Shown here piece after piece: positions 17,718 through 48,238 of a stretch of DNA of 64,000 nt. The stretch covers positions 17,331 to 81,330 of the IMG/VR virus record IMGVR_UViG_3300026382_000013; one strand, 5' to 3'. Every line of letters begins with the position of its first letter. The stretch's first letter is position 1. The notes beneath the pieces were generated by a model. The model ran no database searches, was not told the DNA's origin, and saw only the letters and a list, made by a program, of their open reading frames with translations. Source of the stretch: a virus (Duplodnaviria > Heunggongvirae > Uroviricota > Caudoviricetes). The position numbers and the translations under genes are program-made.

Positions 17718-17899
17718 CAAGAAAATTAAATGCAATAGCTAACCGTAAATCTATTAAAGTTATTCAACAGCAACAACCTAAATTAGATCGTATTGATAAA
17801 TTTAACAAAGCTTTAGATTTAACAGAGCGTTTACGCAAAACACTAGATAGTGATATTGATAGAGCTACAAAAATAGCGGATAATACCTATGGCAAGTGA
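17714..17899 (+). CDS. hypothetical protein (61 aa, basic)
   Basis: ORF. Confidence 0.4.
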   Translation: MTRKLNAIANRKSIKVIQQQQPKLDRIDKFNKALDLTERLRKTLDSDIDRATKIADNTYGK

Positions 17900-19271: not shown

Positions 19272-19617
19272 GGTTAAAATTAATATAAATAAAGAAGCAG
19301 TTAAGCTGTTACATAAACTTGTATTTATACATCCAGAGCTTGAGCATTGTATATTCACTAATGGCAATTATATAGACATATCTCCACCAACACTACGCTC
19401 AACAATAAATATTATAAAACTATTGCGAAATACTGGCCACACTTATGAAGATGAAAAACATAATACATTTAGGACAAAACATAGTATGCATTATTATATA
19501 GCAATTAGTATCTTTAAAGATACTCATATAAATATACTAACATCTTTAGGTGAGCCAGATATAAATGCTGATACACAAATTACATTAAAGGAAATAAATG
19601 AAAACATTACCGACTAA
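19255..19617 (+). CDS. hypothetical protein (120 aa)
   Basis: ORF. Confidence 0.45.
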   Translation: MLSIPKVKININKEAVKLLHKLVFIHPELEHCIFTNGNYIDISPPTLRSTINIIKLLRNTGHTYEDEKHNTFRTKHSMHYYIAISIFKDTHINILTSLGEPDINADTQITLKEINENITD

Positions 19618-29212: not shown

Positions 29213-30572
29213 TGTATTAGATACTAATGTAATTTTGCTTCAGGCTTCTAACATACTAACACTTGGTAAGTATGCTACCATTGTTATACCTGAAACTGTT
29301 GTAGATGAGCTAGACGCAAAAAAGTCTGGACATAGTGAGATTGCATACCAAGCTAGACAATTTGGACGTATACTAGCTAAAGCTGAGTCTCATGGTACAA
29401 CTACTACAGACGTAGCAACACTAACCAAATTCATCATAGACGATGTTGAAATACTAATTGTGAGTGCATTACAGTACCCCTCTTTTAAAGACACTGAGCA
29501 AGCTATACGTAATGATCGTAAGATTATTCATATAGCTGATATACTTAGTACTACATATAACACAACTTTTATATCAAACGATGTTATGTGTAGGATAAGA
29601 GCTGAGTCTTTAGGTTTACATACAGAAGATGTTAAAGATGTACAAGATACTACATTTGAATTTACTAAAGAACTTTATGTAACAGACATAGTATTTAGTG
29701 ATTTACATAACAAACAAATTACTTCTGTTGATAAAGACTATAAATTTCAACACCGTAACTATAAGTTTATAAATACAGTTACCAACCAAATGAAACTTGC
29801 TACTATCACAACTAATGGTATTATTGATATCATAGGTAAAACTACAGAGAAAGAGCTACGTAAACAAGATGTAGCACCAATCAATAGTGACCAACTATTA
29901 TTAGCTCAGGCTATCCAAGATCCTTTAACAGATGTGATAGTTTGTGAAGCACTATCTGGATCAGGGAAGACAACTTGTGCTATATCTAATGCTATGAAGC
30001 TTGTAAAGACTAACACACCTTACACTTCTATCATATACATTAGAGCTTCTATAGATGATGTAGATGATGCCGAAGCTGTAGGATTTTTATCAGGTAATGA
30101 TGAGAAATTTGCTGTATACTCACACCCTCTACACGATACATTAGACTTCATTGCACGTAATCGTAATAAGAATTCTAAGTTACATGGTAAAGAGTATGAA
30201 GAGCGTATACAAGAAACTATTGATGACATTACGGATAAGTACAATATACAGTTTATGACAACATTAGGTATGCGTGGACGAACATTTAGAGATTCTGTGA
30301 TTATTATAGATGAACTACAAAATCAATCTAAAGCCTCATTGCAAAAAACACTTACAAGATTCAAAGACTGTAAAGTGATACTAATTGGTTCTAATAGACA
30401 GATAGATAATAAGTATCTAACCAAATATACCAATGGATTGTCAGTTGTATTAGACGACTGTACTAAACCAAACGACTACATTAATGCACATGTTGTACCT
30501 TTACATAAAGTAGAGAGATCTCGTATTGCTGAATGGAGTGAAAAACTTTTTGACAAGGACTCAAACAAATGA
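29187..30572 (+). CDS. phoH: PhoH-like ATPase with N-terminal PIN domain
   Basis: PIN-like N-terminus (VLDTNVIL). Walker A SGSGKTT, Walker B IIIDELQN. Alternative TTG start at 29202 after gaggagg. Confidence 0.8.
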   Translation: MRRIALNINVLDTNVILLQASNILTLGKYATIVIPETVVDELDAKKSGHSEIAYQARQFGRILAKAESHGTTTTDVATLTKFIIDDVEILIVSALQYPSFKDTEQAIRNDRKIIHIADILSTTYNTTFISNDVMCRIRAESLGLHTEDVKDVQDTTFEFTKELYVTDIVFSDLHNKQITSVDKDYKFQHRNYKFINTVTNQMKLATITTNGIIDIIGKTTEKELRKQDVAPINSDQLLLAQAIQDPLTDVIVCEALSGSGKTTCAISNAMKLVKTNTPYTSIIYIRASIDDVDDAEAVGFLSGNDEKFAVYSHPLHDTLDFIARNRNKNSKLHGKEYEERIQETIDDITDKYNIQFMTTLGMRGRTFRDSVIIIDELQNQSKASLQKTLTRFKDCKVILIGSNRQIDNKYLTKYTNGLSVVLDDCTKPNDYINAHVVPLHKVERSRIAEWSEKLFDKDSNK

Positions 30573-32616: not shown

Positions 32617-32691
32617 TGAGTAGTACCATAGTGGTATTGGGCCAAGCTGTTAACTTGGAAGTCACTGGTTCGAATCCAGTCTACTCAGCCA
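32617..32691 (+). tRNA. tRNA-Asn (GTT), CCA encoded
   Basis: Acceptor TGAGTAG/CTACTCA; anticodon stem CCAAG/CTTGG with loop CTGTTAA; T-arm ACTGG-TTCGAAT-CCAGT; discriminator G; CCA. Confidence 0.8.
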
Positions 32692-32692
32692 T

Positions 32693-32780
32693 GGAAAGTT
32701 GACCGAGTGGTCTATGATATCTGTTTGCTAAACAGACGTAGTTAACTCTACCGTAAGTTCGAATCTTACACTTTCCACCA
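32693..32780 (+). tRNA. tRNA-Ser (GCT), type II with long variable arm, CCA encoded
   Basis: Acceptor GGAAAGT/ACTTTCC; anticodon stem TCTGT/ACAGA with loop TTGCTAA; variable arm GTAG-TTAACT-CTAC; T-arm GTAAG-TTCGAAT-CTTAC. D-stem has one mismatch. Confidence 0.7.
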
Positions 32781-33538: not shown

Positions 33539-36500
33539 CTATTTAAAGATGTTTAATATAGGTATCGTAGTACCACCATCTAATAACCTCATAGCACTAT
33601 CTATTGGGCTAAGTCTGCCACCTAATGTTTGGAATATATTACTATGGAATATACCAGCATCTGGGCTTAATCCTAACTTCTGTGCACTTATATCCATTAA
33701 TACCCTAAATCCATTCTTTCTTAATCTACTGATCTCTACTCTTTGGATGTTACTCCAATACTTATAGAATGCTTCAGGACCAATAGCATCAAGATATTGT
33801 ATAGTCTTACTATTTATTACTTTACTATAGTTGATAAAGTTATCAGTAACTTCTCTTCGCATCTCTTCACTTTCCCTACCATGCTCAATACCATACCAAT
33901 ATAATGCAGCTCTAAAATGGAAGTCACTTTCTTGTGTTACAGCTACCATAAATCTACCTAATTCCGACTTGTTAGTAAGGAATACCGTTTGTATTGCTTG
34001 ATGTAATAAGCTATTTTTACCAGCTACTTTATCTAATTGATCTGTTACAGCTTGTGTAATCGGATTGTTATCTTCTATATCTGCTATATCTTCTACAATA
34101 GCTTGGAACATACCCGCATCCATTAAAGGTTTCAAGGGGTTATGTGCCATTCTATCCTCTATCTCAGCAAGCTTCTTAACATACTTATCTCTTTCCTTAC
34201 CTTCACTACTATGCATCATTCTTATAGCTTGTAGTCTTTCCTTATCATCTATTTTCCATTGTCTTAAACTTTTTCTACTTAACCATAATTTACTCATAGC
34301 CTCCATTGGGCCCATACCTGAGTATACTAAAAATTTAGCATTACTTACTATATTTCCATATATTGTTGATGGCATTTTAACTACGACATTACTTTTAAGT
34401 AGTTGTGCAAAACTCTTTACATAGTGTTCAGCTACCCTAATCTTTCTTTCAGTCTCTTTACTTACTTTAATCCTAGTTTTACCTATACGTTTGATATCCA
34501 TTATACTTGGCTCATTATATGCAAACAATTGATTTATCAAATCTTTTCTTACATACAATACTCTATCTTCTGCATCTGGACCATGCATCTCTCTATTCTT
34601 TTGTCTTATGTAGTCTCTAGCATCTTTAGGTAGTAATGCCCAATACTCTTCAGCTTCAGTTTTTAACCCATACTTGCCTTCATCTTTTAGATCTTCATAA
34701 CCACTTTCATACAGTTTTCTTCTATCCTCTTCATTTAGGTTAAGCTCTTTAGGTTGTATTTTTATATACAGATGTTGTGTATCTTTAAATTGCTCACCAG
34801 ATGTATCTAAATCTTTTGAGTCATCCATAACTATATCTACAAGCTTTCTATTCTGTTCATTAGTAAGTTTCATTGTACCTACTTGACCAAAACTTCTACC
34901 TAACTTCTCAACACCATTAACACTTAATTCTAGGTACTTAATAGCGTCATCTTTACCTATTGGGTATCTAAAGTCTATTATGAAACCTCTATCATTGTAT
35001 ACAGGCTGCATAAGCTCTATGTCACCATCTTGTTCACTATAGCCACTGTTATCTTCATATCTTTCTATAGCTTCATTACGTACTTTAATAAACTTCTTAA
35101 CCATTTGCTTGTCATCAAGTTCAGGAGCTGACATTCTTACTTTGTCACTTAATAGTAACCCTGGTACTGTTCTTCTTTGTAAACTTGCAGCGCCATCTAC
35201 ACGTTTCCCTATACCTGCATTGACATTAACATATACACCATACTCAACATTATCAGTATCATTGTATGCTTCAATTAGATTACGTACTAGTTTGTATCCT
35301 TGTGCTTCCATTTCTTTACGCTTATACACAGGAGCATACTTCATGTCTCTATTGATATGTGTTTTATCCCTTGCCTGGCCTTTAACAAAGTCATGGTATT
35401 CACCAGATTCCTGCATTTCTTCCGCAGTTGCTTCTAACATACCTTTGGCAGTGTCTAAATAAAACTTTACACCATCCGAGTCAATATCTATAAGTTCAGC
35501 TAACTCATTTCTACCTCTAGACATTCTTAAAGCTTCTAATGTGATTAGCTTGTCGATAGCCTCTACGTACACTTCTTCACTACCATCTCTATCTACATCC
35601 CATACATGACCATACATTAATGCTATATTTCTTGCATTAGTTCTTAGACCCTTACCTACAACAAGGTACCTTGCAGCTTCTAGTATATCTCTCATGTACA
35701 TATGTTTTTGGAATGTTGGTAGGTCTTTAAACTCTGTGGCTACTATCTTATTCACTTCTTCATCTATAGCTTTATCACTACTAAGTAACTCTTTAGTTCG
35801 TTTCATCCCAAGACTTCTAGCAACTACTTGTAAGTCTGTACTAAGTGCTGCACTCTCTAAAGCTTCTCTATACTTCTTGTTAGCTAAGGCATTTATATCT
35901 ATCTTTGTAAAAGCTTCTGTTATATCTTGTACTGTACCTTTAAAATTGTGATCTCTAAGCCTATCTACCATACTTCTAAACTGCATTGTCATATCTGTTA
36001 TCTGTACAAGTGTTCTTCTACCTGCCATAAAGTCTGACATAACTGCATGTACAAATGAACCTTCACCTACTCCTAAGTCCATCAGAAGCTTACTTTGAGC
36101 TATAGCTAGACCTTCATCACCTGTTGTATGTTTAAGTGCTTTATTGAGCTTCTTTAGAGTTCTAATTGTTCCCATAGCTTTAATAGCTGACTTGAAGTAA
36201 TTATCTGTACTTTTAGGCTCATACTTATGTAAGTCATCCAGTATCTTTTGGATAATCTTTTCAGTCTCCATACCTCTTTTAGCTTTAATTGCTTCATACA
36301 TCATATTTTGAATAGCTTTAGATTTGTATAGTGCTCTATCTATCATATCTGTACTTACTGATAACTTCTTTAACCACTCATTCTCACTAAGAAGTTTTTT
36401 AATTTCTTCCTCTGTTGCTTTGCTACCTGCTTTTGGTCCTTTTTTACCATCATCCCCATTCATCTTATCTATAGCCCAATTCACTGGTACACTTACTTTA

Positions 36501-37867
36501 GCATCTAGTGTATCTAGTACTTCATCAATCTTACCTACTATCTTCTCATTGATTGGCATGCCTTGTCTTTGAGTAGCTTTACCAGCATATCTATCTTGTA
36601 CTTGTGTTAAAGCATAAACTAACTTTGTACTCTCTTCTAGTAGTGTATCACCTTTTATCTTTTTAGCTTTACCTAGCATAGCTTGAAATGTATTCCAGAA
36701 CCATCTAGTCACTACATCGAGTATAGTCTCATTAGCCTTTTTCTCTTTCATTATCTTTTCAGGAGCTTTCTTGTCTAGTGCTTGCATTAAGGCTTTATTT
36801 GTCATTAGATGGGCCATAAACTCTTGTAGTCTAATACCAGCTAGCTTTTGGTTATATGTATTACTAGCTGTCCCAAAGATATACTCATATCTTTCTTTAG
36901 CCTTATCAATCTCAGCTTCTGTGTACACACCTTCATACTCAGGTAGGAAATCTTCAAATGTAATTACTTTCTGTGCATACTTATATAAGTCTCTAATTTG
37001 TAGTTTTAAGTCAGCACCTGCTGTTGGTATCTTACTATTGAATACCCAATCTAATGCTGCATGCACTGTTTCATGTACTAAAGCTTCTTCATTAGTCATT
37101 GTGAATAAATTCCTAGCTTCTTCTCCTAAGCTACCCCTGATTATACGTATCTTAGCACCTTCAGCAGTTGGGTCAAACATTGCTATTGGTTCTACTATCT
37201 CTTGTACTTTATCTGTTGTTACTTGAATACCAAGTTTTGCTATCTCTTTAGACATCTCCTGAAGCTTCATAGACACTTCTTTAAGTTGTGCACTATGTTC
37301 TGCATCCCAGTCTCCACCTAAAGCTTCTTGGTCAGCTTTCTGCATCTCAGCTTGTATATTCTCTAGTGTACCATCTATCGTATTTGCACTATTAAACATT
37401 TCATTTATTTCTTCATATGTCATGCCATCATTATTATACAACACAGCATCTATGTTGAACTTTCTCAACATCTTAGTCATAGCTTCCTTCGAGTATGTAA
37501 TCTTACTATCTACCCCATCAGGTGTTAATCCATTTCTAGTTACAATAGCATAACCATTTTTACCTTTATCAGTAACATGACTTACTTTATACTTATTTGG
37601 ACCTAACTGCACTACACCTGTAATCTTTACTCTATAGTTCTTATGTCTCGTTCTAGCTTTATGTGTACTAGCATTTCTACTGTAGTACACAGACTGTATT
37701 TGGTACATATCACCAGCCAACTCTTTCTGTACACTTCTAGCTCTATTTCTAGCATCCATTGTAGCCATCTCAATAGCAATATTTGGATCTAGTTGTGGGT
37801 TATCCGCTATAGCTTGTTTTTTAAGCTCATCATTAAGCTCTAGGGTATCTATGTTACATTGTGCCAT
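33539..37867 (-). CDS. giant virion-associated protein (1442 aa), probable internal/ejection protein, with an HExxH motif
   Basis: Last gene of the late operon. LVHETVHAALDW (zincin-like HExxH). The size class matches podovirus internal core proteins. Function inferred. Confidence 0.5.
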   Translation of the reverse strand: MAQCNIDTLELNDELKKQAIADNPQLDPNIAIEMATMDARNRARSVQKELAGDMYQIQSVYYSRNASTHKARTRHKNYRVKITGVVQLGPNKYKVSHVTDKGKNGYAIVTRNGLTPDGVDSKITYSKEAMTKMLRKFNIDAVLYNNDGMTYEEINEMFNSANTIDGTLENIQAEMQKADQEALGGDWDAEHSAQLKEVSMKLQEMSKEIAKLGIQVTTDKVQEIVEPIAMFDPTAEGAKIRIIRGSLGEEARNLFTMTNEEALVHETVHAALDWVFNSKIPTAGADLKLQIRDLYKYAQKVITFEDFLPEYEGVYTEAEIDKAKERYEYIFGTASNTYNQKLAGIRLQEFMAHLMTNKALMQALDKKAPEKIMKEKKANETILDVVTRWFWNTFQAMLGKAKKIKGDTLLEESTKLVYALTQVQDRYAGKATQRQGMPINEKIVGKIDEVLDTLDAKVSVPVNWAIDKMNGDDGKKGPKAGSKATEEEIKKLLSENEWLKKLSVSTDMIDRALYKSKAIQNMMYEAIKAKRGMETEKIIQKILDDLHKYEPKSTDNYFKSAIKAMGTIRTLKKLNKALKHTTGDEGLAIAQSKLLMDLGVGEGSFVHAVMSDFMAGRRTLVQITDMTMQFRSMVDRLRDHNFKGTVQDITEAFTKIDINALANKKYREALESAALSTDLQVVARSLGMKRTKELLSSDKAIDEEVNKIVATEFKDLPTFQKHMYMRDILEAARYLVVGKGLRTNARNIALMYGHVWDVDRDGSEEVYVEAIDKLITLEALRMSRGRNELAELIDIDSDGVKFYLDTAKGMLEATAEEMQESGEYHDFVKGQARDKTHINRDMKYAPVYKRKEMEAQGYKLVRNLIEAYNDTDNVEYGVYVNVNAGIGKRVDGAASLQRRTVPGLLLSDKVRMSAPELDDKQMVKKFIKVRNEAIERYEDNSGYSEQDGDIELMQPVYNDRGFIIDFRYPIGKDDAIKYLELSVNGVEKLGRSFGQVGTMKLTNEQNRKLVDIVMDDSKDLDTSGEQFKDTQHLYIKIQPKELNLNEEDRRKLYESGYEDLKDEGKYGLKTEAEEYWALLPKDARDYIRQKNREMHGPDAEDRVLYVRKDLINQLFAYNEPSIMDIKRIGKTRIKVSKETERKIRVAEHYVKSFAQLLKSNVVVKMPSTIYGNIVSNAKFLVYSGMGPMEAMSKLWLSRKSLRQWKIDDKERLQAIRMMHSSEGKERDKYVKKLAEIEDRMAHNPLKPLMDAGMFQAIVEDIADIEDNNPITQAVTDQLDKVAGKNSLLHQAIQTVFLTNKSELGRFMVAVTQESDFHFRAALYWYGIEHGRESEEMRREVTDNFINYSKVINSKTIQYLDAIGPEAFYKYWSNIQRVEISRLRKNGFRVLMDISAQKLGLSPDAGIFHSNIFQTLGGRLSPIDSAMRLLDGGTTIPILNIFK

Positions 37868-38949
37868 TAGTTACATTCCTCAATCATTTTGTTTATTATA
37901 TCTTCTATACTGTTATTCGTAGCTTTATTTAGTGTACCTTCATCTACTATACTATCTACAGATGCTATAGCATATCCACCTGTGCTAGTACCAAAGCCTT
38001 TACTCTTAAGGTATCTAGTGATGCTCTCAAATAGTTTTTGAATACTGCTCTGCTCGCTCTGTGGAAATTGCTTAATGAACTCTTTCCGTATGTTAGGTTC
38101 TGCACTAAGTATAGCAACTAGTTCAGCGACTTGAGCAAACTTTGTAGGTCTTTTAGCTGCATACATTAATCTCTGTTTAAGTAAATTCTGTTCCAGTGTG
38201 TGGTCTGGGTCAAACTCTTTAACCATATCTATTGTATCTAGCAAATACTTAACTCTGGTATCACTCATATGGTTGCTAAGCCATTCAGCTGTTAGGTAAT
38301 GTCTTATTTCATGTGCAGTGTACACTTCATACATCGCCTCATCTACATGCTCATTAGGCTTGACAACAGTTATTACGCCCTCATTGTACCAGAACTCTTC
38401 ACCTTCTACTACAACACCTGGATACTCTTTTTTAAACTTAACATTAGCTGCTTTTATCTCAGCTAACTCTTTGGCATCTACATATACCTCATTAAGTTCT
38501 GAACCTGCATCAGTAGCTCCTAGAGCAGGGTTAGACTCTTTACTCACATCAATAGTAGCTTCTGTGGTATTGTACACATCAGCCAACTCTTCATAGAAGT
38601 TCTCACCTTCGTACACAGCAAGTGAATCCCCATTACTAAACTCATAACTCCATCTTTTATCTCCACGGGAGCCTTCTTGGTCATCCCAGAATGGTCCTTT
38701 CTCTTTCACTATATCGTCTAGTGTAACCTTCTCACCATCTAATACAAATGTATCACCTATGTTAGGTACTTTCCCTACATTACTAGTTTTATTGCTGTTA
38801 GGTAACTTACTTTTGTCTATTACATCTAGCATACTACCTATACTTTTAAAATTCTTATCTACTGTTAAGTACTCACCACTAAATTTACCCAACTTCTTAA
38901 GTTCATTATTTACAGCTTCTACTGCTGCTTCTACTGTACATGACTTCAT
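37867..38949 (-). CDS. virion-module protein (360 aa) with HExxH motif
   Basis: YTAHEIRHYL. Start overlaps the stop of the 2393-aa gene. Confidence 0.45.
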   Translation of the reverse strand: MKSCTVEAAVEAVNNELKKLGKFSGEYLTVDKNFKSIGSMLDVIDKSKLPNSNKTSNVGKVPNIGDTFVLDGEKVTLDDIVKEKGPFWDDQEGSRGDKRWSYEFSNGDSLAVYEGENFYEELADVYNTTEATIDVSKESNPALGATDAGSELNEVYVDAKELAEIKAANVKFKKEYPGVVVEGEEFWYNEGVITVVKPNEHVDEAMYEVYTAHEIRHYLTAEWLSNHMSDTRVKYLLDTIDMVKEFDPDHTLEQNLLKQRLMYAAKRPTKFAQVAELVAILSAEPNIRKEFIKQFPQSEQSSIQKLFESITRYLKSKGFGTSTGGYAIASVDSIVDEGTLNKATNNSIEDIINKMIEECN

Positions 38950-38951
38950 AC

Positions 38952-41900
38952 CTAACAGTCCTTAAATTTATTTAATATACTGACTATATTCTCAGCTACT
39001 TTTTTATCTTTTTTAGCTATTTTTTCTATAGCCTTAGAGACCTTATCAACTGGCCCTATATTTGGTATTATACTGTTATTATTCTTTGTATACGCTATTT
39101 TACTAATAACTTTTTTTACACTAGCCTCTAGCTTAGTCTCAGGTTCTCTAGCTGTGTATTCCATTACTCCAGTCTCTACACCTGCACCTTCTAAGGCAGC
39201 ATGCTCAATGTATAGATTCTTACCATCCATTAATGCAACTCTCCCAGCTTCACTATTCTTTTGTAACTCTTCCATGCTTCTATACTGTTTCTGTACTGTA
39301 GTAGGGTTAAAGTTATTATCTTTAAATAACTCCCCACCTATTATTTTATTTAGGTATGTTAGCCCACCATCTACATCATTTCCACTAACAATAGCTTCAA
39401 TAGCATTAGACTCTCTTTCCATGAATGCTTTGACATTACCTACATTCTTCCTACCTTTAAGGTTTTGTTTTAACTTTTCTAAAGCATATACTCTATTTAA
39501 TTCCTCAATACCTTTTGCACCAATAACATTTAGTGTTTTATTGAGGCTGTCTAACATTTCAGTAGGTAAGCTGTATGTCTGCATCAACTCAATAACAGCT
39601 TCATTATACGCTTGTGTGCCTGGCAGTGCATTCTCTATATCTAGCACATTTGCATCATGTATTCCTATAGAGTTGAATTTACTTAGTACTTTAGCTTGCA
39701 GCATCGCATCTTGAAAGTGGACTGTTATTGGTGCACCTCCTGTGTAACTTCCAATTAGTTTGTACACATCAGCATACGCACTCATCTTCTTACCATTACT
39801 CAGGGGTACACTACCTTGGTTATCCATATTCGTATCTACATTAACTTCGTACTCACCTTTTTCCCTAGATGCTATGACACCTAGGTCAGTATCTTTATCA
39901 GCGAATGCTACCTTGAATGTTGGTAGCACACCTTGTAATTCAGCTAGTACTGTATTTACCTCTTCAGTTGTTAATGTAGTAGCTGTCTTACCTGTTGCTT
40001 GTGTCTTCTCTTCAAGCTTTTTATCCATAGCTTTTATAACCCTTGGCTCTGCTGCTTTGAACATCATAGCGAATGTGCTATTAACTGTTTTAGTAGCTTT
40101 AATCAAATCTCCATACTGCTTCTCAAATGTTTCTGTTAGTGGTCCTTCTACAGCGATTGTTATACTATTTGCTAAGGCTTTCTCCTCGTTCAGTGTAAGC
40201 TTGAAATTTAGTAAATCTTTATTCTTATATGCTTTTCTAAGTCTATTGATAGCATCTGAGTTAGGATTTGTGATATTTAGTAACTCTGTAAGAGCCTTTA
40301 GTAGCTTTACCCTGTCTTTGTGGTCTGTAGCATTGTGAGCATCTTCTAACATCTTATACATATTGTCTACACCAAGCCATCCTTTGTTAGCTGCAATAGT
40401 CGCAAGAGCGGCACCGTAATTGAAAGTCATAAATGGATCTTTCATAAACCCTCTAGATATTGTCTCTTGTAAGCTCTCACCTAGTAGTTTAAATATAGTT
40501 CTTGTACGTTCTCTATCACCTTCTGGTAAACTTTCTATCTCTTCATATGTAACTTTAGCTGGTGCTTCATAGGCATCTTGTACATCACCTTCTTTCCACT
40601 TACCATATGTCTTAGTCTCTTCACCCTCTTTCACTTCAAACAATCCAGCTCTGGCTAGCTCTTCATGTACCTTACCTATATCTATACCGCTACCATCTGG
40701 TGCTATGAACACTGGCATTTGCAGTAGCTTGAGGAAGTAACCAGATGTAATAGCATCTGTCTCAAGTGTCATACCTGTTCTAAACATTTCTCCGTTGTTT
40801 TCAGCTTCTTTATATGCTCTATACTCCACTAACCCCAGTAATGCTAACTCTGGTTCATTTTTAGCATCAGTGGTCATTAGATATGCATATGCATCTTTTA
40901 GGTTATCATATGTATCTAGTTTATCTAATATACCTTTTAACTCTTCCATAGAACCTTTTATAGTCTTTTTATCTACTGCTACATCGAATGCTTGCCCAAT
41001 ACCCAACATGAACATAGTTTTTTTCTCGTTTGTGTCTACATCCACCATTTTATCCATTACAGCATGTCTATGAAGCTTTTTATCTTGCCAGTTAAATCTG
41101 TTAGACTTAATACCAAACCTATTATTAGACATGATGTACCACTGTGACCACATCTTAGACTCTTTAACCATTTCTACAGTTTCTTTGAAATACTTAATTG
41201 TATCTGCTATAGCTCTATTTTTACCATTAACAGCAGGTCTTCTTACAACATGTACATTCTTATCTACGTCAGTAATCTCTCCCATATACACGCTCATAGC
41301 CTTTTCACCTATCTCATCGAAGCCTTTTACAAATCTCTGGTTGAACTGTCTGGAGTCTTTAGTTTGTTTTTCAACGGCATCTTTACTTACTTTTGGTACT
41401 GTACCTTTGATATCCCCACTAGGGCCTTCTATACTTATTTCTTCTCTATCTACTTTAGGCTCTACTAGATGTATATCAGTGTCTCTTCTAGCTACTCCTA
41501 GAACATCTGTAAGTTCTTTTATACCTGCCTCTAATGGATTTATCTTTTTAGTTTTTAACCCTTCTTCAGTAAGCTTATATACTGTTATACTCTCATTACT
41601 AGAATCTTCCCCAAATACAGCAGATTTCTTTTTAACCTCTGGTTTAAGTAAGTTAGCCTTACTAGCTAGTCTCATGGCTAATAGTCCTAACTCTACTTTT
41701 AGTTTAGGAGCTAGTTCCTCGTTGTTAGCTTCAGCAGTAGCATCTTTATTCTTAATTCCAAGGTATTTGTACACATACTTCCCAATGCTATTAGCTTCAG
41801 CAGTTAGTAGTCCATCAACATCTTTAATTCTTTCTCGTATCTCATTTGTAACTGGAGCTTTTTTATCCATACCTAACATAGCTCTTACTTCAGCATCTGA

Positions 41901-44900
41901 CTTAATACCTGATACTTGTGTGGTGCTTAACCAATCTACCAACCCAAGTACAACAGCTTTATTGACTTGCTCATCTAACTCAAACTTATCAATAGTCTCG
42001 TATCCATTAGCATCTTGCTTAATGACTGGTGACATAAGTAATCTACTTATACTTTGAAAGCCTTTCACACTACTAACTGGTAGCACATGTAGTTGCTCTG
42101 TTTTATCTGCAAGGCCTAAGCTCTTAGCGGCTATACTGAGTCTATCCATAATACTTAACACTGTATCTAATGGACCTTCACTTTCAATCTCACCAATAAC
42201 TTCATCCATACTAGTTAGGTCGATACCTTTACCGTTAGACTCAAAGTGATCTGCTATGCTTGCTTCAGCTAGCTCTTCATTTGTGACTCTACCTTTAAGT
42301 TGCTGTCTATTCTTTATTTTAGCTTGTGTACTACTAAGCCTATCAATAAGTTGTGCCCCAACAGCTTCAGACTTCTTAACAGCTTTAAGCTCTTCTTTAG
42401 TAGACTTAATAAACTCTTTCTTAGTTTCTATTTCAGCTTCTAATTTCTTAGCTAGTTTAGCTTCTCTTCCTAAAGCATCTATTTTATCTTTCTTACGTTC
42501 TACTTGAGCTACACTTTTCTTTTGCTGTAACTGTACTTCATATTTCTCAGCCTCTTCGTCTATTTTTGCTAATTTCTTTGTATAGTAGTCATTTATCTTT
42601 TGTAGCCGTTTAGCTAGATTTCCTTTGATTAGAAACTCTCTCTTAGCTTGTCTATACTCAGCATCCAGATACTCAGACTTATTTATCTTTCTTGTTTGTT
42701 TCCCATGGCTTATATACTTAGTACTTAACTCTTCTAGTATGTCCTCATTAGCTGCTATATCTTTCTCAAGTTGTTTGATAGCCGCTTCTAGCTCTTTTAC
42801 TTCATCAGACTCTCTGCTTTGTTTATCAGCTTTCTCATTGCTGCTATCTTCTCGTTCTGTAATTTTAGTTTCTCTTCTAACAGTCTCTTTTTCTTTTGTA
42901 GTGCCTGTAGGTTGTTCTTCATTTTGTTCATCCTTATACGTTTTATTTTCTTGTGTTTCAGTTTCCCCATGTAATGCTTCTATCTGTTTAGCAAGTTCAG
43001 GGTCTTGCTCATATCCTCTATCCAACTCTGCTACATCATCTTCACTATACTTATCACTCTCATTAGGAGATGTCTTTCGCTTCATTAACTGCTCTCGTTT
43101 TAGTGCCTGCTCTTCTTCACTACCACCTATTGGTGTGTTATCTTTACTTGTATCTTGTAGCTCCTGAGCTCTACTACTCAACTTTTTCTTACCGCTTTTT
43201 GGTATTACTTTTTTACCATTAACATATGTAATACCAGCTTCTTTATTAGCTTTCCACACATCCCAAGCTTTCTGCATTAACTCAGCTTGTTTGGTATTCT
43301 TACCTGTGTCTCTACCACCATGTAAAAACTCTTCTAATCTTTTTGCAGTAGCCTTAGGCAGATGCTTATATATCTCACTAATACTAGGTACGTCTGGTTC
43401 TTGTATACTATCGTCAGTGTTGTAATCAGGTACACCCTCATCCATAGGTTGTGCTTTACTTTTAGTACCTTCTTTAAGCTCCTTAGCTAGCTCCTCAACT
43501 CTACCATCTGCAACAGCATTTGTAAAAGCTTGCTGTTCACTAGGTGTAAGATTTCTATCTTCCCTAGACATAAGTTCTTTAAGTGTTTCGTCACTTACCT
43601 TACCTTCAGCTAAGTCACTAACCCTAACCATAAGATTCATCTCTTGTTGCATAGGTTTAACCATTGTGTCTGCTGTGCTGTGGTTGTATGTGTAAACTTC
43701 CTTACCATGCGTAAACTCTACTACTGGTTCTTGAGTAACACCGTCCCATGATTTTATGTTCTCCGCATATTGTCTTCCAGCAGTCTCAAAAGCATCTAAT
43801 TTATCTTTCTGACTAGCCGTAAAGTGTTTTAGTGCATTTGTAAGATGCTTACGCAGTGCAGACCCTTTTGGTTCATGTATAAGTGCATCAGCGTATTCTA
43901 GCAACCCTGTTCTTTGCTTTCCTCCTATACTACCACCATAGTACTTTAATCTCAGGGAATCTTTATCTGTTATAGTAGCACCTTCAGGTATGTCTACTTT
44001 ATCGTGCTCTAACTCCCCAACAGACTCTACTATGTCTCTTTCAAGTTTCAGTCTTTCTAACTCTAATGCATCTTTTGTACTTTCTATATCTTTATCAATT
44101 TCAGCAATAGGTCTGTTATGTAGTACTGAAGCTTCTCCATTAAGTGCTCTAGACATTAAGTCAATTCTAACTATACTGTCTAGTATTTTTTCGCTTTCCT
44201 TGCTACCAGCAGTTTCATCTCCCATAGATTCAAGTTCTTTGCTCAGTACTTCTTTATACTTCCCTAGACCATTCAACATACCTTGTCGTTGGGTATCATC
44301 TACTTCTTTTCCTTCAGCGACATTCTTCATTATATCCTGAACAGTTGGGTCTTGTGTGTACACTTGAACATTATTAAGCACTGCCTCGGCATCTTTACTG
44401 AATGTATGTGCTTTAGTGCTTGCATTAGGTCCAGTAAGTATGTCATATTTACCTTTAAGAAACTTACCAGCTGGTTTAATAGCAGCTTCAGTGGTACTCA
44501 ATACTGCCATACCTGGCCCAGCAATTGCCCCCATAACAGCATTTACATATATTTCTTTTAACATATCTTTGTCTGTTATATCAAACTCACCTTGTCTACC
44601 AGCTAATTCTACCAAACCTTGCTGTATTGGTCCCTCTTGTATACCCTCAGTAGCCATTAACGTTGCAGTTTTAGCAGCTGGCTTAACTAACAACTTGCCT
44701 ATAACTGTAGCTGGTAACTCTCCCATAGCTTTAGTTAGTAACTTATCAGTTGCTTCTCCTAGTGACTTAAATGCTGCATCTCTAACAGCCCCTCCAGATG
44801 CCTTGCCTAATGCAAACTCACCTGCTGCTGTATCTACCGCTGTTGCTACAGTACTAAGTGTGCCTATAAGTGCCAATTCACTACCGTTAGGCTTTCTACC

Positions 44901-46133
44901 ATGTACTTTAATGAACTCTTTAGTAGCCTCATCCATAGTCTCCACATCAAACCCTGCGAAGACTGGAACTTTAGTTATACCTTTAGCTGTTAGTGCCTTA
45001 GTCAGCCCATAACTTTGAGCAGCCATTTCCATAGCGCCAAGGGGGTTGTTGTATGCTGCTGTAAACAGAGTACTGAAGTAGTTACCTTTGTCGAAGCCTT
45101 CGCCAACTTCTTTTTGGAACTTCTCTACATCTTCCCCATCAGGAGCTACATGTTCTTTATCGAATTTAGCTATAAGCTTGGAAGCTTCATCCATCGTATT
45201 TATAACTGACTTCACTGACTTACTATATACTGAACCATCTTCTAGGTAGTCACCACCTAATACTTCGTACAACTTTTTAGGGGCTGCTGTCACTGCTTCA
45301 GATGTTTTAAACAACGCTCCACTAACACCAGCTCTCACAACTTTTTCTACAGCACCCATAGGGCCTACATTAATTGACTCCATAGCTTCTGGGTTAGCAT
45401 TCATAAGTGCTTGTTCTAAGTCTTCTTGAGGTGGTGTGTAGTAAGCATTTTGTTGTGGATCATTAACAGCTAATTCTGTGATGTTAGTACCGTCTGCACT
45501 GCCTAATTCTGCTAAGCCCCTACCTTTAACACCAGTACCATATGATCTGCTAGTTATCGGGAGGTTGAGTGGTATATACTTTATAGTTTTACCATCTTCT
45601 CCTACATACTCTCCAGTGAGGTTTGCACTCTCTACTCCACGTAATAGTGGTTCTTGCCATTCTGTGTTACCATTAGCTAGATCTGAGAATAATTGTCTTT
45701 GTTGTCTATCAGCTACATCAATATAGTCTTGGTCTGTCAATGTGTCTACGGGCTTATTTAGCAAGTTAGCAACGTAACCAGGTTGTACTGCACGTTTGTA
45801 TCTACTTCTGTTTATTTCTTCAGTTGGGGAAGCTACTGCTCTTTCTGTATATGTACCATCAGCATTTTGCACTGGTCTTCTATGGTCACTTTCAACAGCA
45901 TCATACTCATACCCTGCTGCTGGCGTACTTACACGTACTTTACCTAGTCTTTTAGTTATAACTGTGTCTGCATCTAGAATACCTAGTAACACATCGTCCA
46001 TTAACGAGTCATCTAGGGGAGCTACATTAGTAGATGTACCGTGTCTGTTGATCTTTTGTTCCATAGCTGTTGCAGCATTTGCTGGCTTATTGCTAGGGTT
46101 GTACACCTCATAATTATCTATAGTCTCATCCAT
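38952..46133 (-). CDS. giant virion-associated protein (2393 aa) with a central ~350-aa K/E-rich coiled-coil
   Basis: Single uninterrupted ORF. Central segment ...KEKETVRRETKITEREDSSNEKADKQ...KLAKIDEEAEKYEVQLQQKK... Plus-strand antisense ORFs inside it are Ser/Leu-rich artefacts. Confidence 0.5.
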   Translation of the reverse strand: MDETIDNYEVYNPSNKPANAATAMEQKINRHGTSTNVAPLDDSLMDDVLLGILDADTVITKRLGKVRVSTPAAGYEYDAVESDHRRPVQNADGTYTERAVASPTEEINRSRYKRAVQPGYVANLLNKPVDTLTDQDYIDVADRQQRQLFSDLANGNTEWQEPLLRGVESANLTGEYVGEDGKTIKYIPLNLPITSRSYGTGVKGRGLAELGSADGTNITELAVNDPQQNAYYTPPQEDLEQALMNANPEAMESINVGPMGAVEKVVRAGVSGALFKTSEAVTAAPKKLYEVLGGDYLEDGSVYSKSVKSVINTMDEASKLIAKFDKEHVAPDGEDVEKFQKEVGEGFDKGNYFSTLFTAAYNNPLGAMEMAAQSYGLTKALTAKGITKVPVFAGFDVETMDEATKEFIKVHGRKPNGSELALIGTLSTVATAVDTAAGEFALGKASGGAVRDAAFKSLGEATDKLLTKAMGELPATVIGKLLVKPAAKTATLMATEGIQEGPIQQGLVELAGRQGEFDITDKDMLKEIYVNAVMGAIAGPGMAVLSTTEAAIKPAGKFLKGKYDILTGPNASTKAHTFSKDAEAVLNNVQVYTQDPTVQDIMKNVAEGKEVDDTQRQGMLNGLGKYKEVLSKELESMGDETAGSKESEKILDSIVRIDLMSRALNGEASVLHNRPIAEIDKDIESTKDALELERLKLERDIVESVGELEHDKVDIPEGATITDKDSLRLKYYGGSIGGKQRTGLLEYADALIHEPKGSALRKHLTNALKHFTASQKDKLDAFETAGRQYAENIKSWDGVTQEPVVEFTHGKEVYTYNHSTADTMVKPMQQEMNLMVRVSDLAEGKVSDETLKELMSREDRNLTPSEQQAFTNAVADGRVEELAKELKEGTKSKAQPMDEGVPDYNTDDSIQEPDVPSISEIYKHLPKATAKRLEEFLHGGRDTGKNTKQAELMQKAWDVWKANKEAGITYVNGKKVIPKSGKKKLSSRAQELQDTSKDNTPIGGSEEEQALKREQLMKRKTSPNESDKYSEDDVAELDRGYEQDPELAKQIEALHGETETQENKTYKDEQNEEQPTGTTKEKETVRRETKITEREDSSNEKADKQSRESDEVKELEAAIKQLEKDIAANEDILEELSTKYISHGKQTRKINKSEYLDAEYRQAKREFLIKGNLAKRLQKINDYYTKKLAKIDEEAEKYEVQLQQKKSVAQVERKKDKIDALGREAKLAKKLEAEIETKKEFIKSTKEELKAVKKSEAVGAQLIDRLSSTQAKIKNRQQLKGRVTNEELAEASIADHFESNGKGIDLTSMDEVIGEIESEGPLDTVLSIMDRLSIAAKSLGLADKTEQLHVLPVSSVKGFQSISRLLMSPVIKQDANGYETIDKFELDEQVNKAVVLGLVDWLSTTQVSGIKSDAEVRAMLGMDKKAPVTNEIRERIKDVDGLLTAEANSIGKYVYKYLGIKNKDATAEANNEELAPKLKVELGLLAMRLASKANLLKPEVKKKSAVFGEDSSNESITVYKLTEEGLKTKKINPLEAGIKELTDVLGVARRDTDIHLVEPKVDREEISIEGPSGDIKGTVPKVSKDAVEKQTKDSRQFNQRFVKGFDEIGEKAMSVYMGEITDVDKNVHVVRRPAVNGKNRAIADTIKYFKETVEMVKESKMWSQWYIMSNNRFGIKSNRFNWQDKKLHRHAVMDKMVDVDTNEKKTMFMLGIGQAFDVAVDKKTIKGSMEELKGILDKLDTYDNLKDAYAYLMTTDAKNEPELALLGLVEYRAYKEAENNGEMFRTGMTLETDAITSGYFLKLLQMPVFIAPDGSGIDIGKVHEELARAGLFEVKEGEETKTYGKWKEGDVQDAYEAPAKVTYEEIESLPEGDRERTRTIFKLLGESLQETISRGFMKDPFMTFNYGAALATIAANKGWLGVDNMYKMLEDAHNATDHKDRVKLLKALTELLNITNPNSDAINRLRKAYKNKDLLNFKLTLNEEKALANSITIAVEGPLTETFEKQYGDLIKATKTVNSTFAMMFKAAEPRVIKAMDKKLEEKTQATGKTATTLTTEEVNTVLAELQGVLPTFKVAFADKDTDLGVIASREKGEYEVNVDTNMDNQGSVPLSNGKKMSAYADVYKLIGSYTGGAPITVHFQDAMLQAKVLSKFNSIGIHDANVLDIENALPGTQAYNEAVIELMQTYSLPTEMLDSLNKTLNVIGAKGIEELNRVYALEKLKQNLKGRKNVGNVKAFMERESNAIEAIVSGNDVDGGLTYLNKIIGGELFKDNNFNPTTVQKQYRSMEELQKNSEAGRVALMDGKNLYIEHAALEGAGVETGVMEYTAREPETKLEASVKKVISKIAYTKNNNSIIPNIGPVDKVSKAIEKIAKKDKKVAENIVSILNKFKDC

Positions 46134-46188
46134 GTTAATCCTTTACGCAGTATAATATTAGAATTATACTGTATACAGACTTAATAGA

Positions 46189-47844
46189 CTATAATTTAAA
46201 TCCTGCTATCTGTAATCTTTGCTTAGCTTTGTCTGACAATGAGTCGTACATCTCTACCAAATCTTTACGGTTATACCCAGCTTTCATTACACTATCTAGT
46301 ATAGCTCTACTCACTGTAGGTTTCTTACCATTTGTAAAGTCTAGTCTAGGTAACTTTGAACTCAGTATACTATCAAGTTTATCTACATTCTCAATAAATC
46401 TATTCTGCCTAACAGTTTCTGCTTTAGCCTCTTGTTGTACATCAACACTAGATTCACTAGGTGGGACTACAACCTTAGGACGTGGAATTGCATGTCTTTT
46501 AACTTCTACTTTAGATTCAGACTTAGCAGCTGCTTTTGGGGCTGTGTTAAACTCGTCTAAGTACTTTCTTGATATCTTATCTGTTTTGTACTTAGCTAAT
46601 GGGTCTACGTACTTCTTATTAGCTGTTATGTTATTAAGTACTTTACGAAGTCTAGTTACTTCTTTCTGGTCATAAGCACTTAGTACTTTCCTACTCACTT
46701 TGCTAGACCTAACAGTACCACTACTACCTTTACTAGTATTAAGCTCAGCTTCTTTAAGGAGTGCTTGTGCAGCAGGTGTAGCTAGAACTTTTGCAGCAGA
46801 AGCTTTATCCGTTATTTTAAGTACAGGTGAACTAAATACAGCACTCTGATCAATAGATCCAGCTATTAAGTCAGTAGCAGTCTTTACGTCCATATATTTA
46901 GGTGGCATACCTTTACGTGTCTCTAGGTTGTAGTTCATTAGCAGTTTAACACTGTTTCTCACATCATTAGGTTCATCTGTGAATGAAAGTATCCCATGTT
47001 CAGACCCTATGCGTTCTGTAAGTTTGTCTACTACACCTAAACCATCAACACTTAATACTTGTGGAGCATTTAAGACTTTACCCTTAGTATACTTGCTATC
47101 TTTCTTTTTACTAGTAACCTTACTACCAGTACTTTCAGCATCTGTCATAGTAGTTGCAAAATTCTCTATACTTCTAATCTGGTCTTGTATATTTTTAATC
47201 TTAACGTCATCAGCTTTTGTAAGTGTATTCTTGTAAGGGGCACTAGCTAGTATTCCAGCCTTTTCTGCCTCTTCTGGTGTAGCTCCACCTCTAATAGCAT
47301 TCATAACTACTTTATTTTTATACGCATCTACATCAGCAACACTTTTTACAGCTATGTCCCCACTCTCTGTTAGCATTGGTGCTACATCTTTATTGAGTCT
47401 ATCAACAGTAGTGTCAAACTTACCTTGTAGTATTTTCATTCTATCATTCGTACCATACAACTTACTCTCAGGATTTACGGAGTCTATCAGTACTTGCTTA
47501 TCAACACCAGTAGTTTTTGATATATTTGCTACTTCGCTATCATATGCATCAGAGATACGTTTGTACGCATCAGAGATCCCAGCACCTTTATCAGTTTGTA
47601 GTATGGCATCTTTAGTATTAGCCTCTATTTGTTGCTTACGCTTAGTAGCATCAACTGTATCTTGGTACATTCTCTCTGCTCTGTCTTGAGCTTGACGACG
47701 TATACCAAGCAACTCGTCTCTCTGTCTGAGTTTCTCATCACTATTAAGGATGTTATACGCACCTTCAACAGATTTTCTAGCCCCTTTAGTAGGGTCTATT
47801 ACATGACTTTGATTAAACCTTAGTGCATAACCTGCTGCTGCCAT
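46189..47844 (-). CDS. virion-module protein (551 aa)
   Basis: ORF between the Gly-rich protein and the giant gene. A hairpin cagtataa/ttatactg sits in the 46134-46188 gap. Confidence 0.45.
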   Translation of the reverse strand: MAAAGYALRFNQSHVIDPTKGARKSVEGAYNILNSDEKLRQRDELLGIRRQAQDRAERMYQDTVDATKRKQQIEANTKDAILQTDKGAGISDAYKRISDAYDSEVANISKTTGVDKQVLIDSVNPESKLYGTNDRMKILQGKFDTTVDRLNKDVAPMLTESGDIAVKSVADVDAYKNKVVMNAIRGGATPEEAEKAGILASAPYKNTLTKADDVKIKNIQDQIRSIENFATTMTDAESTGSKVTSKKKDSKYTKGKVLNAPQVLSVDGLGVVDKLTERIGSEHGILSFTDEPNDVRNSVKLLMNYNLETRKGMPPKYMDVKTATDLIAGSIDQSAVFSSPVLKITDKASAAKVLATPAAQALLKEAELNTSKGSSGTVRSSKVSRKVLSAYDQKEVTRLRKVLNNITANKKYVDPLAKYKTDKISRKYLDEFNTAPKAAAKSESKVEVKRHAIPRPKVVVPPSESSVDVQQEAKAETVRQNRFIENVDKLDSILSSKLPRLDFTNGKKPTVSRAILDSVMKAGYNRKDLVEMYDSLSDKAKQRLQIAGFKL

Positions 47845-47854
47845 ACTATACCCC

Positions 47855-48238
47855 TTACGCCATTACTTTTTGTAAATGTGCTCTATCCGCTTGTAAGTTA
47901 GCTTCATGCACAGCATTAGTGTTATATTGTTGATCCATTAGTGCTCTCTGGGCATCTGCTGTCTTTTTATTTTCAAAGTACCCTAGTAGCCCTAAACCTA
48001 ATTCAGCACCAGCCATAGCTCCACCATACGTACTTAGACCACCAGACCCTGTAGTCCCTTGAGTAGCACTAGTAACACTGCCATCTTGGAATAAACTATT
48101 ACCATTTGCATCCACCATACTAGTACTAGTTAATGCTTTACCATCTTGCCCAATACCAGTATATGTCCAAGTTGATCCGCCTGTAGTTGTAGCTTTATCA
48201 TTCCCAAAAAGATTACTTAACCCATCTAATACACCCAT
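47855..48238 (-). CDS. Gly/Thr-rich small structural protein (127 aa)
   Basis: GGSTWTYTGIGQDG...GTTGSGGLSTYGGAMAGAELGLGLLG. Confidence 0.4.
   Translation of the reverse strand: MGVLDGLSNLFGNDKATTTGGSTWTYTGIGQDGKALTSTSMVDANGNSLFQDGSVTSATQGTTGSGGLSTYGGAMAGAELGLGLLGYFENKKTADAQRALMDQQYNTNAVHEANLQADRAHLQKVMA

Follow-up and report, generated by a model that had tools for sequence, protein, structure and literature searches.

Our results indicate that this region is likely to be the operon for the ejection proteins of an N4-related podovirus of the AltAD45 type, in which the gp50-type virion RNA polymerase (vRNAP) is encoded by three translationally coupled cistrons and not by one ~3500-codon gene. 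The three pieces comprise 4195 aa and contain four cysteines, all at the junctions between pieces and none internal, against ~32 expected at a frequency of 0.77%. As the sole cysteines of the pieces sit at the breaks, this arrangement therefore suggests that the chain is rejoined by disulfides for injection. Split vRNAPs and the MPTase domain are both already published; the junction-cysteine rule appears to be new, and no junction-cysteine or disulfide-linked vRNAP was found in the literature.

The late operon encodes proteins of 938, 127, 551, 2393, 360 and 1442 aa, in an order comparable to gp53, gp52, gp51 and gp50 of N4, and closes with the vRNAP genes downstream of the gp53/gp52/gp51-type genes, as in N4 (the equivalence to gp51 and gp52 being positional). 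Four ORFs listed in an earlier note on this DNA are all present as described on the minus strand: the 551-aa ORF at 46189-47844; the 2393-aa ORF (piece 1; NTD, charged linker and RNAP) at 38952-46133; the 360-aa ORF (piece 2; a stand-alone MPTase-domain protein) at 37867-38949; and the 1442-aa ORF (piece 3; a gp50-type C-terminal domain, C1 plus C2) at 33539-37867. Pieces 1, 2 and 3 lie in three different frames, with gaps between the ORFs of 2 nt and -1 nt. The 127-aa ORF (47855..48238, minus strand) was equated with the small ejection protein gp52 by position alone because it has no significant sequence match to N4 gp52; it contains a Gly/Leu-rich hydrophobic segment near residues 70-88. The 551-aa protein, the positional equivalent of the N4 ejection protein gp51, has no PHROG or Pfam match and no BLAST match to gp51. 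Both of these proteins have 0 Cys. Pfam detected no domain in any of the 551-, 2393-, 360- and 1442-aa proteins, and the equivalence of the NTD, gp51 and gp52 is argued mainly on position.

The portal is 60.6% identical to that of the Alteromonas AltAD45 phages, which are the closest cultured relatives, and an N4-type portal, capsid protein, gp57-like protein and primase are all encoded here. There was no near-identical DNA among cultured phages, and viral contigs scanned for the 1442-aa protein yielded no confirmed relative. Members of the Schitoviridae (Wittmann et al. 2020) have genomes of 59-80 kb and three RNAP genes, including the RNAPII subunits gp15/gp16. The AltAD45 genomes are of 100-104 kb and are reported to be without RNAPII (PMC3821669). 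An RNAPII homologue (gp15/gp16) was not found among the 34 larger ORFs scanned in the window, the whole 64,000-nucleotide stretch that was analysed, which is part of a genome. The contigs of relatives span 80-108 kb. Synteny and the matches to PHROG 2206 refine the podovirus-like module of the earlier note to the ejection operon of an N4-like podovirus. Its expectation of ejected internal-core or DNA-translocation proteins, sometimes with enzymatic domains, is partly supported; these are not anonymous core proteins.

Piece 1 is a predicted T7-like single-subunit RNAP with an intact catalytic set, located behind an NTD and a linker. The RNAP domain, the equivalent of the N4 mini-vRNAP, covers residues 1382-2375 (39009..41990, minus strand) and matches PHROG 2206, 'virion RNA polymerase', at an E value of 2.1e-91 over profile positions 1024-2015. 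Motifs T/DxxGR, A, B and C all keep their catalytic residues; R1672, K1686, D1793, K1898, Y1906 and D2160 align with R424, K437, D559, K670, Y678 and D951 of the N4 mini-vRNAP (6/6; codons checked). The earlier reader set aside an RNA polymerase because the motif of the multisubunit enzymes was sought: the reported absence of DxDGD is true, but it is irrelevant to the question because this polymerase is of the single-subunit T7 type. Residues 1-1000 (43134..46133, minus strand) were assigned as the gp50 NTD equivalent from hydropathy, which shows hydrophobic stretches rich in Ala and Gly at residues 420-438 and 528-546, and from homology to the NTD pieces of relatives (28-30% identity). A weak colinear profile match links this NTD to N4 residues 378-996 (domain i-E 4e-4), and homology to the N4 NTD is not demonstrable from sequence. 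Between the NTD and the RNAP, residues 1001-1350 (42084..43133, minus strand) form by composition a K/E-rich charged linker or coiled coil. Blocks of 100 residues across ~1001-1300 contain 31-32% K+E and 40-45% charged residues, in agreement with the K/E-rich centre described previously for this protein. The linker between the NTD and RNAP of N4 gp50 has ~100 residues, 907-1007 (PMC13434306).

Piece 3 also matches PHROG 2206 (E 5e-107, profile positions 2238-3405), and pieces 1 and 3 are colinear along this 3406-position vRNAP profile. Searches by tblastn with piece 3 recovered only Schitoviridae vRNAPs, in their C-terminal parts, at 21-24% identity and E values down to 1e-27, while the BLAST matches on N4 cover residues 2552-2932 and 3132-3447. 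The CTD of N4 gp50 (residues 2104-3500) consists of C1 followed by C2 and is autoinhibitory. In piece 3, a C1-type MPTase domain at residues ~125-400 (36668..37495, minus strand) was delimited from invariant residues, PHROG 2206 and the N4 motif, and a C2-type alpha-helical C-terminal domain of the vRNAP at residues ~401-1442 (33542..36667, minus strand) from PHROG 2206, tblastn and BLAST. The sole HExxH of the protein is HETVH at residues 265-269 (37061-37075, minus strand), and this HExxH...E aligns with HELVH at residue 2228 of N4 gp50. All 10 homologues, at 28-54% identity, retain H265, E266 and H269; Y329 and E349 are invariant too. By sequence, this C1 is orthologous to C1 of N4 gp50 (residues 2124-2375), where an HExxH...Y...E zincin-like MPTase domain has already been described (PMC13434306, PMC5512222).

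The single ~3500-aa polypeptide of the gp50 family is represented here by three ORFs, and a split is also found in all relatives of the clade. Stand-alone CTD genes of 1381-1442 aa are present in 10 homologues. The patterns of breaks vary across seven metagenomic loci (six lineages) and the cultured phages AD45-P1 and PT11-V19, and in alignment the breaks coincide with the flexible linkers between the domains of N4 gp50. It is highly improbable that the split is an artefact or is bypassed, be it through an assembly error, a pseudogene of one gp50-like gene or a programmed frameshift fusion. The use of three frames and the minimal gaps between the ORFs would fit such an origin, as would the GenBank label 'potential frameshift' for the AD45-P1 region and an AAATTTA run just upstream of the first stop. 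However, breaks occur in at least nine independent lineages, at differing positions and with clean ATG starts throughout, and the conserved terminal Cys motifs make sense only at real termini. For AD45, the vRNAP stop codon was PCR-verified by resequencing, and polypeptides of 270 and 175 kDa were both present on virion gels (PMC3821669). Frameshifting of -1 at AAATTTA was rejected: the zero frame does not read this run as X XXY YYZ, and AD45 yields these two separate polypeptides. A split intein or trans-splicing was rejected as the junctions lack flanking intein-sized conserved blocks. The 'coil containing protein' of Vibrio phage 1.261.O was rejected as a further split; it is an unsplit vRNAP of 4093 aa with no Cys.

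Piece 2 is an extra MPTase domain, paralogous to C1, placed at the linker between the RNAP and the CTD. The zincin-like domain spans residues ~143-340 (within 37867..38949, minus strand), which also include R260, E276 and E284, and its HEIRH at residues 213-217 (38299-38313, minus strand) is the sole HExxH of the protein. All 24 homologues, at 23-43% identity, retain H213, E214 and H217. A word-indexed protein search with the 360-aa protein gave a self-match only, and one with the C1 profile gave two fragments among the matches listed; an exhaustive HMMER search was then used. The HExxH motifs previously noted in the 360- and 1442-aa proteins are thus real, one in each and invariant in their respective homologues; the motif is absent from the 2393- and 551-aa proteins. 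In an AF2 model of the 360-aa protein, whose core has a pLDDT above 90, helix 204-225 holds H213, E214 and H217, and helix 270-283 holds the invariant E276. The modelled core runs from helix 35-51 through strands 56-58, 63-65 and 68-71 to helix 80-101 (model numbering; add 124 for the protein residue), and so has the predicted N-terminal helix and three-stranded beta-sheet that precede the HExxH helix in zincins. A non-zincin context had been proposed earlier as grounds for doubt: the model of the 360-aa protein has a zincin-like core, but that of C1 in the 1442-aa protein is poor (pLDDT 51) and not usable for a structure search. The C1-type and piece-2-type domains align with an hhalign E value of 9.6e-5 (probability 58%). 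No Pfam peptidase family (MPTase-PolyVal or other) was detected for the HExxH domains, and PDB sequence searches with single proteins and a CTD profile returned designed helical proteins only, with nothing relevant. By motif and predicted fold, both domains appear zincin-like and are putative metallopeptidases. In other proteins, piece-2-type domains occur in fusion with the RNAP, the C-terminal domain or cargo (helicase, NADAR, kinase or AlkB), and in relatives the slot of piece 2 holds variable cargo (RecD-like helicase, NADAR, kinase, AlkB).

The role of these MPTase domains bears on the view of the earlier reader, who would see generic internal-core or DNA-translocation proteins with an active zinc metalloprotease, directed at host proteins after ejection, as their chief enzymatic activity. 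The RNAP and CTD are encoded here as separate chains, and the motif has nonetheless stayed invariant; severing the link between them cannot, therefore, be the sole role of the HExxH site. Invariance of HExxH, the downstream Glu and other active-site-like residues under these circumstances fits a target besides the protein's own linker, and Iyer et al. name attack on host proteins among the possible roles of MPTases (PMC5512222). We nevertheless regard this view as unlikely, as it omits the dominant conserved function, RNA polymerase. We found no literature report of proteolysis, zinc binding or peptidase activity by any vRNAP MPTase. Moreover, the C1 motif of AD45-P1 is EExxH, with loss of the first His of HExxH, and catalysis by C1 is hence not universally kept.

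A distinctive feature of the split polymerase is the location of its cysteines. The gp50 family is otherwise marked by an absence of Cys, and both N4 gp50 and the unsplit Vibrio vRNAP are without any; here Cys is present at the junctions. At junction 1, the upstream side carries Cys2393 (38955..38957), the last residue and sole Cys of piece 1, and the downstream side carries Cys4 of piece 2 (38938-38940). At junction 2, Cys359 (37873-37875), the other of the only two Cys of piece 2, faces Cys4 (37856..37858), which is the sole Cys of piece 3 and is invariant in all 10 homologues; all four codons are on the minus strand. In nine lineages totalling 36,466 residues, every Cys (32/32) falls within six residues of a terminus that faces a junction; all junctions (16/16) carry Cys on either side, and no outer chain end carries one. 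The rate in the remaining ORFs of the window, 0.77%, would predict ~281 Cys (placement log10 P = -63). In a wider set of 41 further proteins, 58/58 Cys are terminal. AD45 obeys the same rule: one Cys is residue 2493 of 2495 and the other residue 4 of 1409. The contexts of the Cys are conserved and unlike each other: the downstream Cys lies in M-x-C-x-[ILV]-[DE] and the upstream one in [KE]-x-C-x(0-4). A lipoprotein signal was rejected, there being no signal peptide. The AltAD45 authors took vRNAP cysteines as a sign of a non-injected protein (PMC3821669), and no mention of their placement at junctions was found in the passages searched; our result corrects this published reading.

On the basis of this pattern, we put at about even the chance that head-to-tail disulfides between the pieces rebuild one threadable chain that is opened in the reducing cytoplasm. 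In this scheme, the Cys at the C terminus of one piece would bond with the one at residue 3-6 of the piece that follows, generating a linear beads-on-a-string pseudo-single chain that could be threaded through the tail channel like the single-chain N4 enzyme. By analogy with N4, the pieces would be packaged in the capsid and would exit through the tail once the gp52-like and gp51-like proteins had left, and the ejected RNAP would then transcribe early genes from hairpin promoters. The presence of both pieces of the AltAD45 homologue on virion gels is indirect evidence for packaging. Opening of the disulfides in the reducing host cytoplasm may release the RNAP, cargo enzymes and the autoinhibitory CTD without proteolysis. 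The rule would also permit modular insertion of new cargo genes at junctions, as the variable middle gene suggests.

Somewhat less probable, but still a serious possibility, is that the pieces are never covalently joined and are separate or non-covalently docked virion proteins, with the Cys serving, for example, as a shared metal site where the pieces dock, as a transient thiol intermediate or as a tag recognized in packaging or by the MPTase. No thiol oxidase gene was seen, with CxxC in the window being confined to RNR and one 162-aa ORF; virion assembly occurs in the reducing cytoplasm; the RNAP/CTD interface of N4 is likewise non-covalent; and the distinct conserved motifs around the two Cys could be docking or recognition motifs. 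The two separate bands on AltAD45 virion gels also count against disulfides, the use of a reducing agent not being stated in the searched text (PMC3821669). However, a single Cys per side cannot make a normal tetrahedral metal site, and total exclusion of other Cys is a known signature of proteins that avoid wrong disulfides. The strict pairing of Cys across junctions, with none at outer ends or elsewhere, is the exact prediction of pairwise bonding and is hard to obtain from a generic tag.

Exit of a ~400-kDa protein through a 35-Å tail channel is a puzzle for N4-like phages, and the current model envisages unfolding and threading of a beads-on-a-string chain. Split vRNAPs are a natural experiment on this threading model: the chain is cut at linkers, yet there is one Cys on each side and none elsewhere. 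If the disulfides are true, ejection would require chain continuity, domain separation after entry would be tolerated or useful, and any protein might be loaded into such virions by means of two terminal tags.

The pieces share with N4 gp50 the domain order, a T7-like RNAP with identical catalytic residues, a C1 with HExxH...E followed by a helical C2, the exclusion of internal Cys and a location that closes the late operon behind gp53/gp52/gp51-type genes, at a sequence identity of ~22%. In contrast, N4 gp50 is one 3500-aa chain with no Cys, while the phage described here has chains of 2393, 360 and 1442 aa, a single Cys flanking every break on either side, a further MPTase paralogue as a free-standing protein and a charged linker of ~300-350 aa instead of ~100 aa. 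ORF127/ORF126 of the Alteromonas phages vB_AmaP_AD45-P1 to -P4 (Garcia-Heredia et al. 2013, PMC3821669) likewise encode the vRNAP as separate polypeptides that follow the junction Cys rule, and RNR and ClpP genes lie beside convergently oriented vRNAP genes in both; AD45 differs in having two pieces, no middle MPTase gene and a C1 motif of EExxH. The MPTase zincins of polyvalent proteins (Iyer, Burroughs, Anand, de Souza and Aravind 2017, PMC5512222) and anthrax lethal factor-like zincins have an HExxH helix, a Glu in a later helix and a preceding three-stranded sheet, as modelled here, and the polyvalent-protein MPTase is likewise a hub that links unrelated effector domains (helicase, NADAR, kinase, AlkB, RNAP); unlike those, the domain also exists here as a free 360-aa protein. 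A lytic transglycosylase was not detected here. The ejectosomes of T7 (gp14/gp15/gp16) and Pseudomonas phage DEV (gp73/gp72/gp71) resemble this operon in having three ejection proteins in a row, free of cysteine, that travel through the tail, but here a split RNA polymerase takes the third place.

A tight operon on the minus strand of the window (33539-48238) contains ORFs of 127, 551, 2393, 360 and 1442 aa. A gap of 2 nt separates the 2393- and 360-aa ORFs, the 360- and 1442-aa ORFs overlap by one base (TAATG), and these three ORFs lie in three different reading frames. ORF, motif and composition checks showed that the earlier note had described these ORFs, two HExxH motifs and a K/E-rich centre accurately: the 360- and 1442-aa proteins carry one HExxH each (HEIRH, residue 213; HETVH, residue 265), a motif scan of the 2393- and 551-aa sequences found none, and in the 2393-aa protein the stretch ~1001-1300 has 31-32% K+E and 40-45% charged residues. 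PHROG 2206, a 3406-position profile built on N4-like virion RNA polymerases (vRNAPs), matched residues 1382-2375 of the 2393-aa protein at positions 1024-2015 (E 2e-91) and residues 145-1441 of the 1442-aa protein at positions 2238-3405 (E 5e-107). As these profile regions follow one another, the two proteins make up consecutive stretches of a single known protein. In tblastn against 50,697 phage records, every match of the 1442-aa protein was to the C-terminal third of a Schitoviridae vRNAP (21-24% identity). The polymerase active site is conserved: the catalytic positions of the N4 mini-vRNAP (the RNAP domain), confirmed against N4 itself to be R, K, D, K, Y and D, are all kept in the alignment (6 of 6; R1672, K1686, D1793, K1898, Y1906 and D2160). 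The polymerase is of the T7 type. DxDGD is a motif of multisubunit polymerases; its reported absence was therefore a search for the wrong class. Nor are the giants anonymous internal-core or DNA-translocation proteins. The finding resolves into known things, namely an N4-type vRNAP with its published zincin-like metallopeptidase (MPTase) domain, split in the way that was first observed in AltAD45 phages; what is new in detail is an additional stand-alone MPTase gene and a variable slot for cargo.

The split is conserved. In a collection of 5.8 billion proteins, homologues of the 1442-aa protein were stand-alone in 10 of 10 cases (1381-1442 aa), and their contigs encode one chain cut at differing places. 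Pieces of 1038, 1515, 374 and 1435 aa occur at metagenomic loci L001/L002, of at least 1102, 1460, 1239 and 1434 aa at L005, of 2605, 224 and 1402 aa at L003/L004, of 1202, 1497 and 1392 aa at L007, of 2586 and 1405 aa at L008, and of at least 2415 and 1435 aa at L009; the cultured phages AD45-P1 and PT11-V19 have pieces of 2495 and 1409 aa and of 1000 and 2082 aa, respectively. The AD45 split was published in 2013; that report describes re-sequencing of the stop codon and 270- and 175-kDa polypeptides, both on virion gels (PMC3821669). In alignment, the cut sites fall at the two flexible linkers that cryo-EM defined in N4 gp50: residues 907-1007 join the N-terminal domain (NTD) to RNAP, and residues 2102-2123 join RNAP to the C-terminal domain (CTD) (PMC13434306). 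Recurrent cuts, the AD45 gels and the linker positions together indicate that the split vRNAP is a known variant and no artefact.

Comparison of the termini revealed that pieces start with M-x-C and finish with a cysteine. The window's 2393-aa protein has one cysteine (its last residue), the 360-aa protein has C4 and C359 and the 1442-aa protein has C4 only; the 551- and 127-aa proteins have none, and the cysteine content of the other 34 window ORFs is 0.77%. Across nine lineages (the window, six metagenomic lineages, AD45-P1 and PT11-V19; 36,466 residues), there are 32 cysteines versus ~281 expected. All 32 lie within 6 residues of a split-facing terminus, cysteines flank both sides of 16 of 16 junctions, and the outer ends (N-terminal of the first piece, C-terminal of the last) have none; conditional on that number of cysteines, such a placement has a probability of about 10^-63. 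Another 41 members of the family (53,057 residues) have 58 cysteines, all of them terminal, and the unsplit vRNAPs of N4 (3500 aa) and Vibrio phage 1.261.O (4093 aa) have none. Cysteine suppression in Schitoviridae ejection proteins is known and has been ascribed to passage through an oxidising compartment (PMC11445570). Having noticed cysteines, the AD45 authors judged the protein unlikely to be injected (PMC3821669). A literature search found no paper noting the junction rule, which appears to be new.

By analogy with N4, the pieces would be packaged in the capsid and would exit once the gp52- and gp51-like proteins have left; the NTD would insert into the inner membrane, the RNAP would transcribe early genes, and the CTD, autoinhibitory to the polymerase in N4, would be its partner. 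The cysteine pattern suggests, with roughly an even chance of being right, that disulfides link the pieces into one chain that is opened in the cytoplasm. Each C-terminal cysteine would bond to the N-terminal cysteine of the next piece, restoring a linear chain, such that a pull on the first piece would drag the rest through the channel; cytoplasmic thioredoxin or glutathione would then free the pieces. Such linkage would explain the ban on all other cysteines, the bare outer ends and how cargo genes could slot into a junction if given both cysteine tags, as in the L005 helicase-MPTase. A weak point is that a CxxC motif search of the window revealed no evident phage thiol oxidase. With this rule, the threading model of vRNAP ejection could be checked by a simple gel with phages already cultured.

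In N4 gp50, HExxH occurs once, at residue 2228 (SPSMETLIHELVHASTF), in the C1 subdomain (residues 2124-2375) of the CTD. Iyer et al. (2017) assigned this region, by HHpred against anthrax lethal factor, to the zincin-like MPTases of 'polyvalent proteins' (PMC5512222). In the 1442-aa family, H265, E266, H269, Y329 and E349 are invariant and align with N4 HELVH...Y...NEFMAW, making the HExxH an orthologue of the N4 motif. The AD45-P1 CTD piece (15624-19853, minus strand, of its locus) has EExxH (YMEEVVHS) in C1, where the others have HExxH, and keeps the downstream Glu (REEFLA). The site is thus not indispensable everywhere, and its metal site may be inactivated in the AD45-P1 lineage. As the motif is invariant in the 1442-aa family even though RNAP and CTD are already separate, it cannot serve solely to cut the RNAP-CTD link; it may also act on the long linker between NTD and RNAP, or on targets in the host.

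A word-indexed protein search found no relatives of the 360-aa protein; an exhaustive HMMER search recovered 30. A domain spanning residues ~131-350 has H, E, H, R, E, A and E invariant in 24 aligned homologues. It is found C-terminally in RNAP pieces (proteins P0021, P0025 and P0017), N-terminally in CTD pieces, ahead of C1 (P0022 and P0031), and in fusions to RecD-like helicases, a NADAR domain, an AAA_33 kinase and an AlkB-like oxygenase. Given the homologue alignment, AlphaFold2 produced a confident model (pLDDT 82.6, core >90; model numbering + 124 = protein residue) that has a helix at 35-51, three strands, the HExxH helix at 80-101 and an invariant-Glu helix at 146-159, a modelled topology that is the zincin core described by Iyer et al. 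(PMC5512222). Foldseek searches of PDB and BFVD with this model gave nothing significant; the best, non-significant BFVD matches were a Tenacibaculum phage structural protein and a roseophage vRNAP fragment. Profile-profile comparison of the C1 and 360-type domains without shared sequences gave E 9.6e-5 and a probability of 58%, with HExxH and Glu in register. We conclude that both motifs sit in predicted zincin-like MPTase domains, a type that has been reported before. Residues 1-130 (38560-38949, minus strand) are a separate N-terminal unit, of which residues 45-124 match P0039 (E 5e-17), a 341-aa metagenomic protein with a single cysteine close to its C-terminus (residue 338).

In relatives, the slot between the RNAP and CTD genes (L005 6273-9992; P0015, P0017, P0019, P0020 and P0029) holds differing cargo, including a RecD-like helicase (AAA_30/UvrD_C_2), NADAR, an AAA_33/zeta-toxin-like kinase and an AlkB-like 2OG oxygenase with DUF7831. 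The same MPTase domain is present in all of these proteins, and the two terminal cysteines in nearly all, including the 1239-aa L005 helicase-MPTase (C3 and C1238). They look like injected counter-defence enzymes. The 224-aa middle piece at L003 (9327-10001) has terminal C4 and C220 but lacks HExxH, and it shows no detectable resemblance to the 360-aa protein; slot and tags are conserved even where content differs.

Elsewhere in the window, gene content fits an N4-related phage, with N4-type portal (E 7e-192), major capsid and gp57-like proteins, gp43-type primase, gp24-like ATPase, RNR, ClpP and PhoH. A DNA repair exonuclease gene (60352-61557, minus strand; PHROG 704, E 2e-81) adjoins the portal gene within the late structural module. 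Plus-strand tRNA genes are Met-CAT (3141-3217), Asn-GTT (32617-32691) and Ser-GCT (32693-32780), the latter two sitting just ahead of the vRNAP operon's convergent end. The DNA polymerase I gene (7980-10880, plus strand) comprises ORFs of 477 and 274 aa, matching PHROG 17 positions 691-1004 and 1011-1221; the gap of ~640 bp contains a pair of small ORFs, paralogous to each other (9407-9667 and 9676-9945; each ends in FKHKLL), and no Rfam intron was found. It could be a split polymerase or a mobile-insertion remnant.

By portal, the nearest cultured phages are the Alteromonas podoviruses AD45-P1 to P4 (100-104 kb; 60.6% identity), followed by Alteromonas phages PT11-V19 and R22Y (about 51%). 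ClpP-like protease (28628-29212) and PhoH-like (29187-30572) genes, both on the plus strand, lie in the replication/nucleotide-metabolism arm 3' of the RNR genes; AD45-P1 likewise has a Clp protease gene 3' of its RNR genes. The N4 late operon ends with gp53 (885 aa), gp52 (150 aa), gp51 (644 aa) and gp50 (3500 aa), an order matched in the window by proteins of 938, 127 and 551 aa and then 2393+360+1442 aa.
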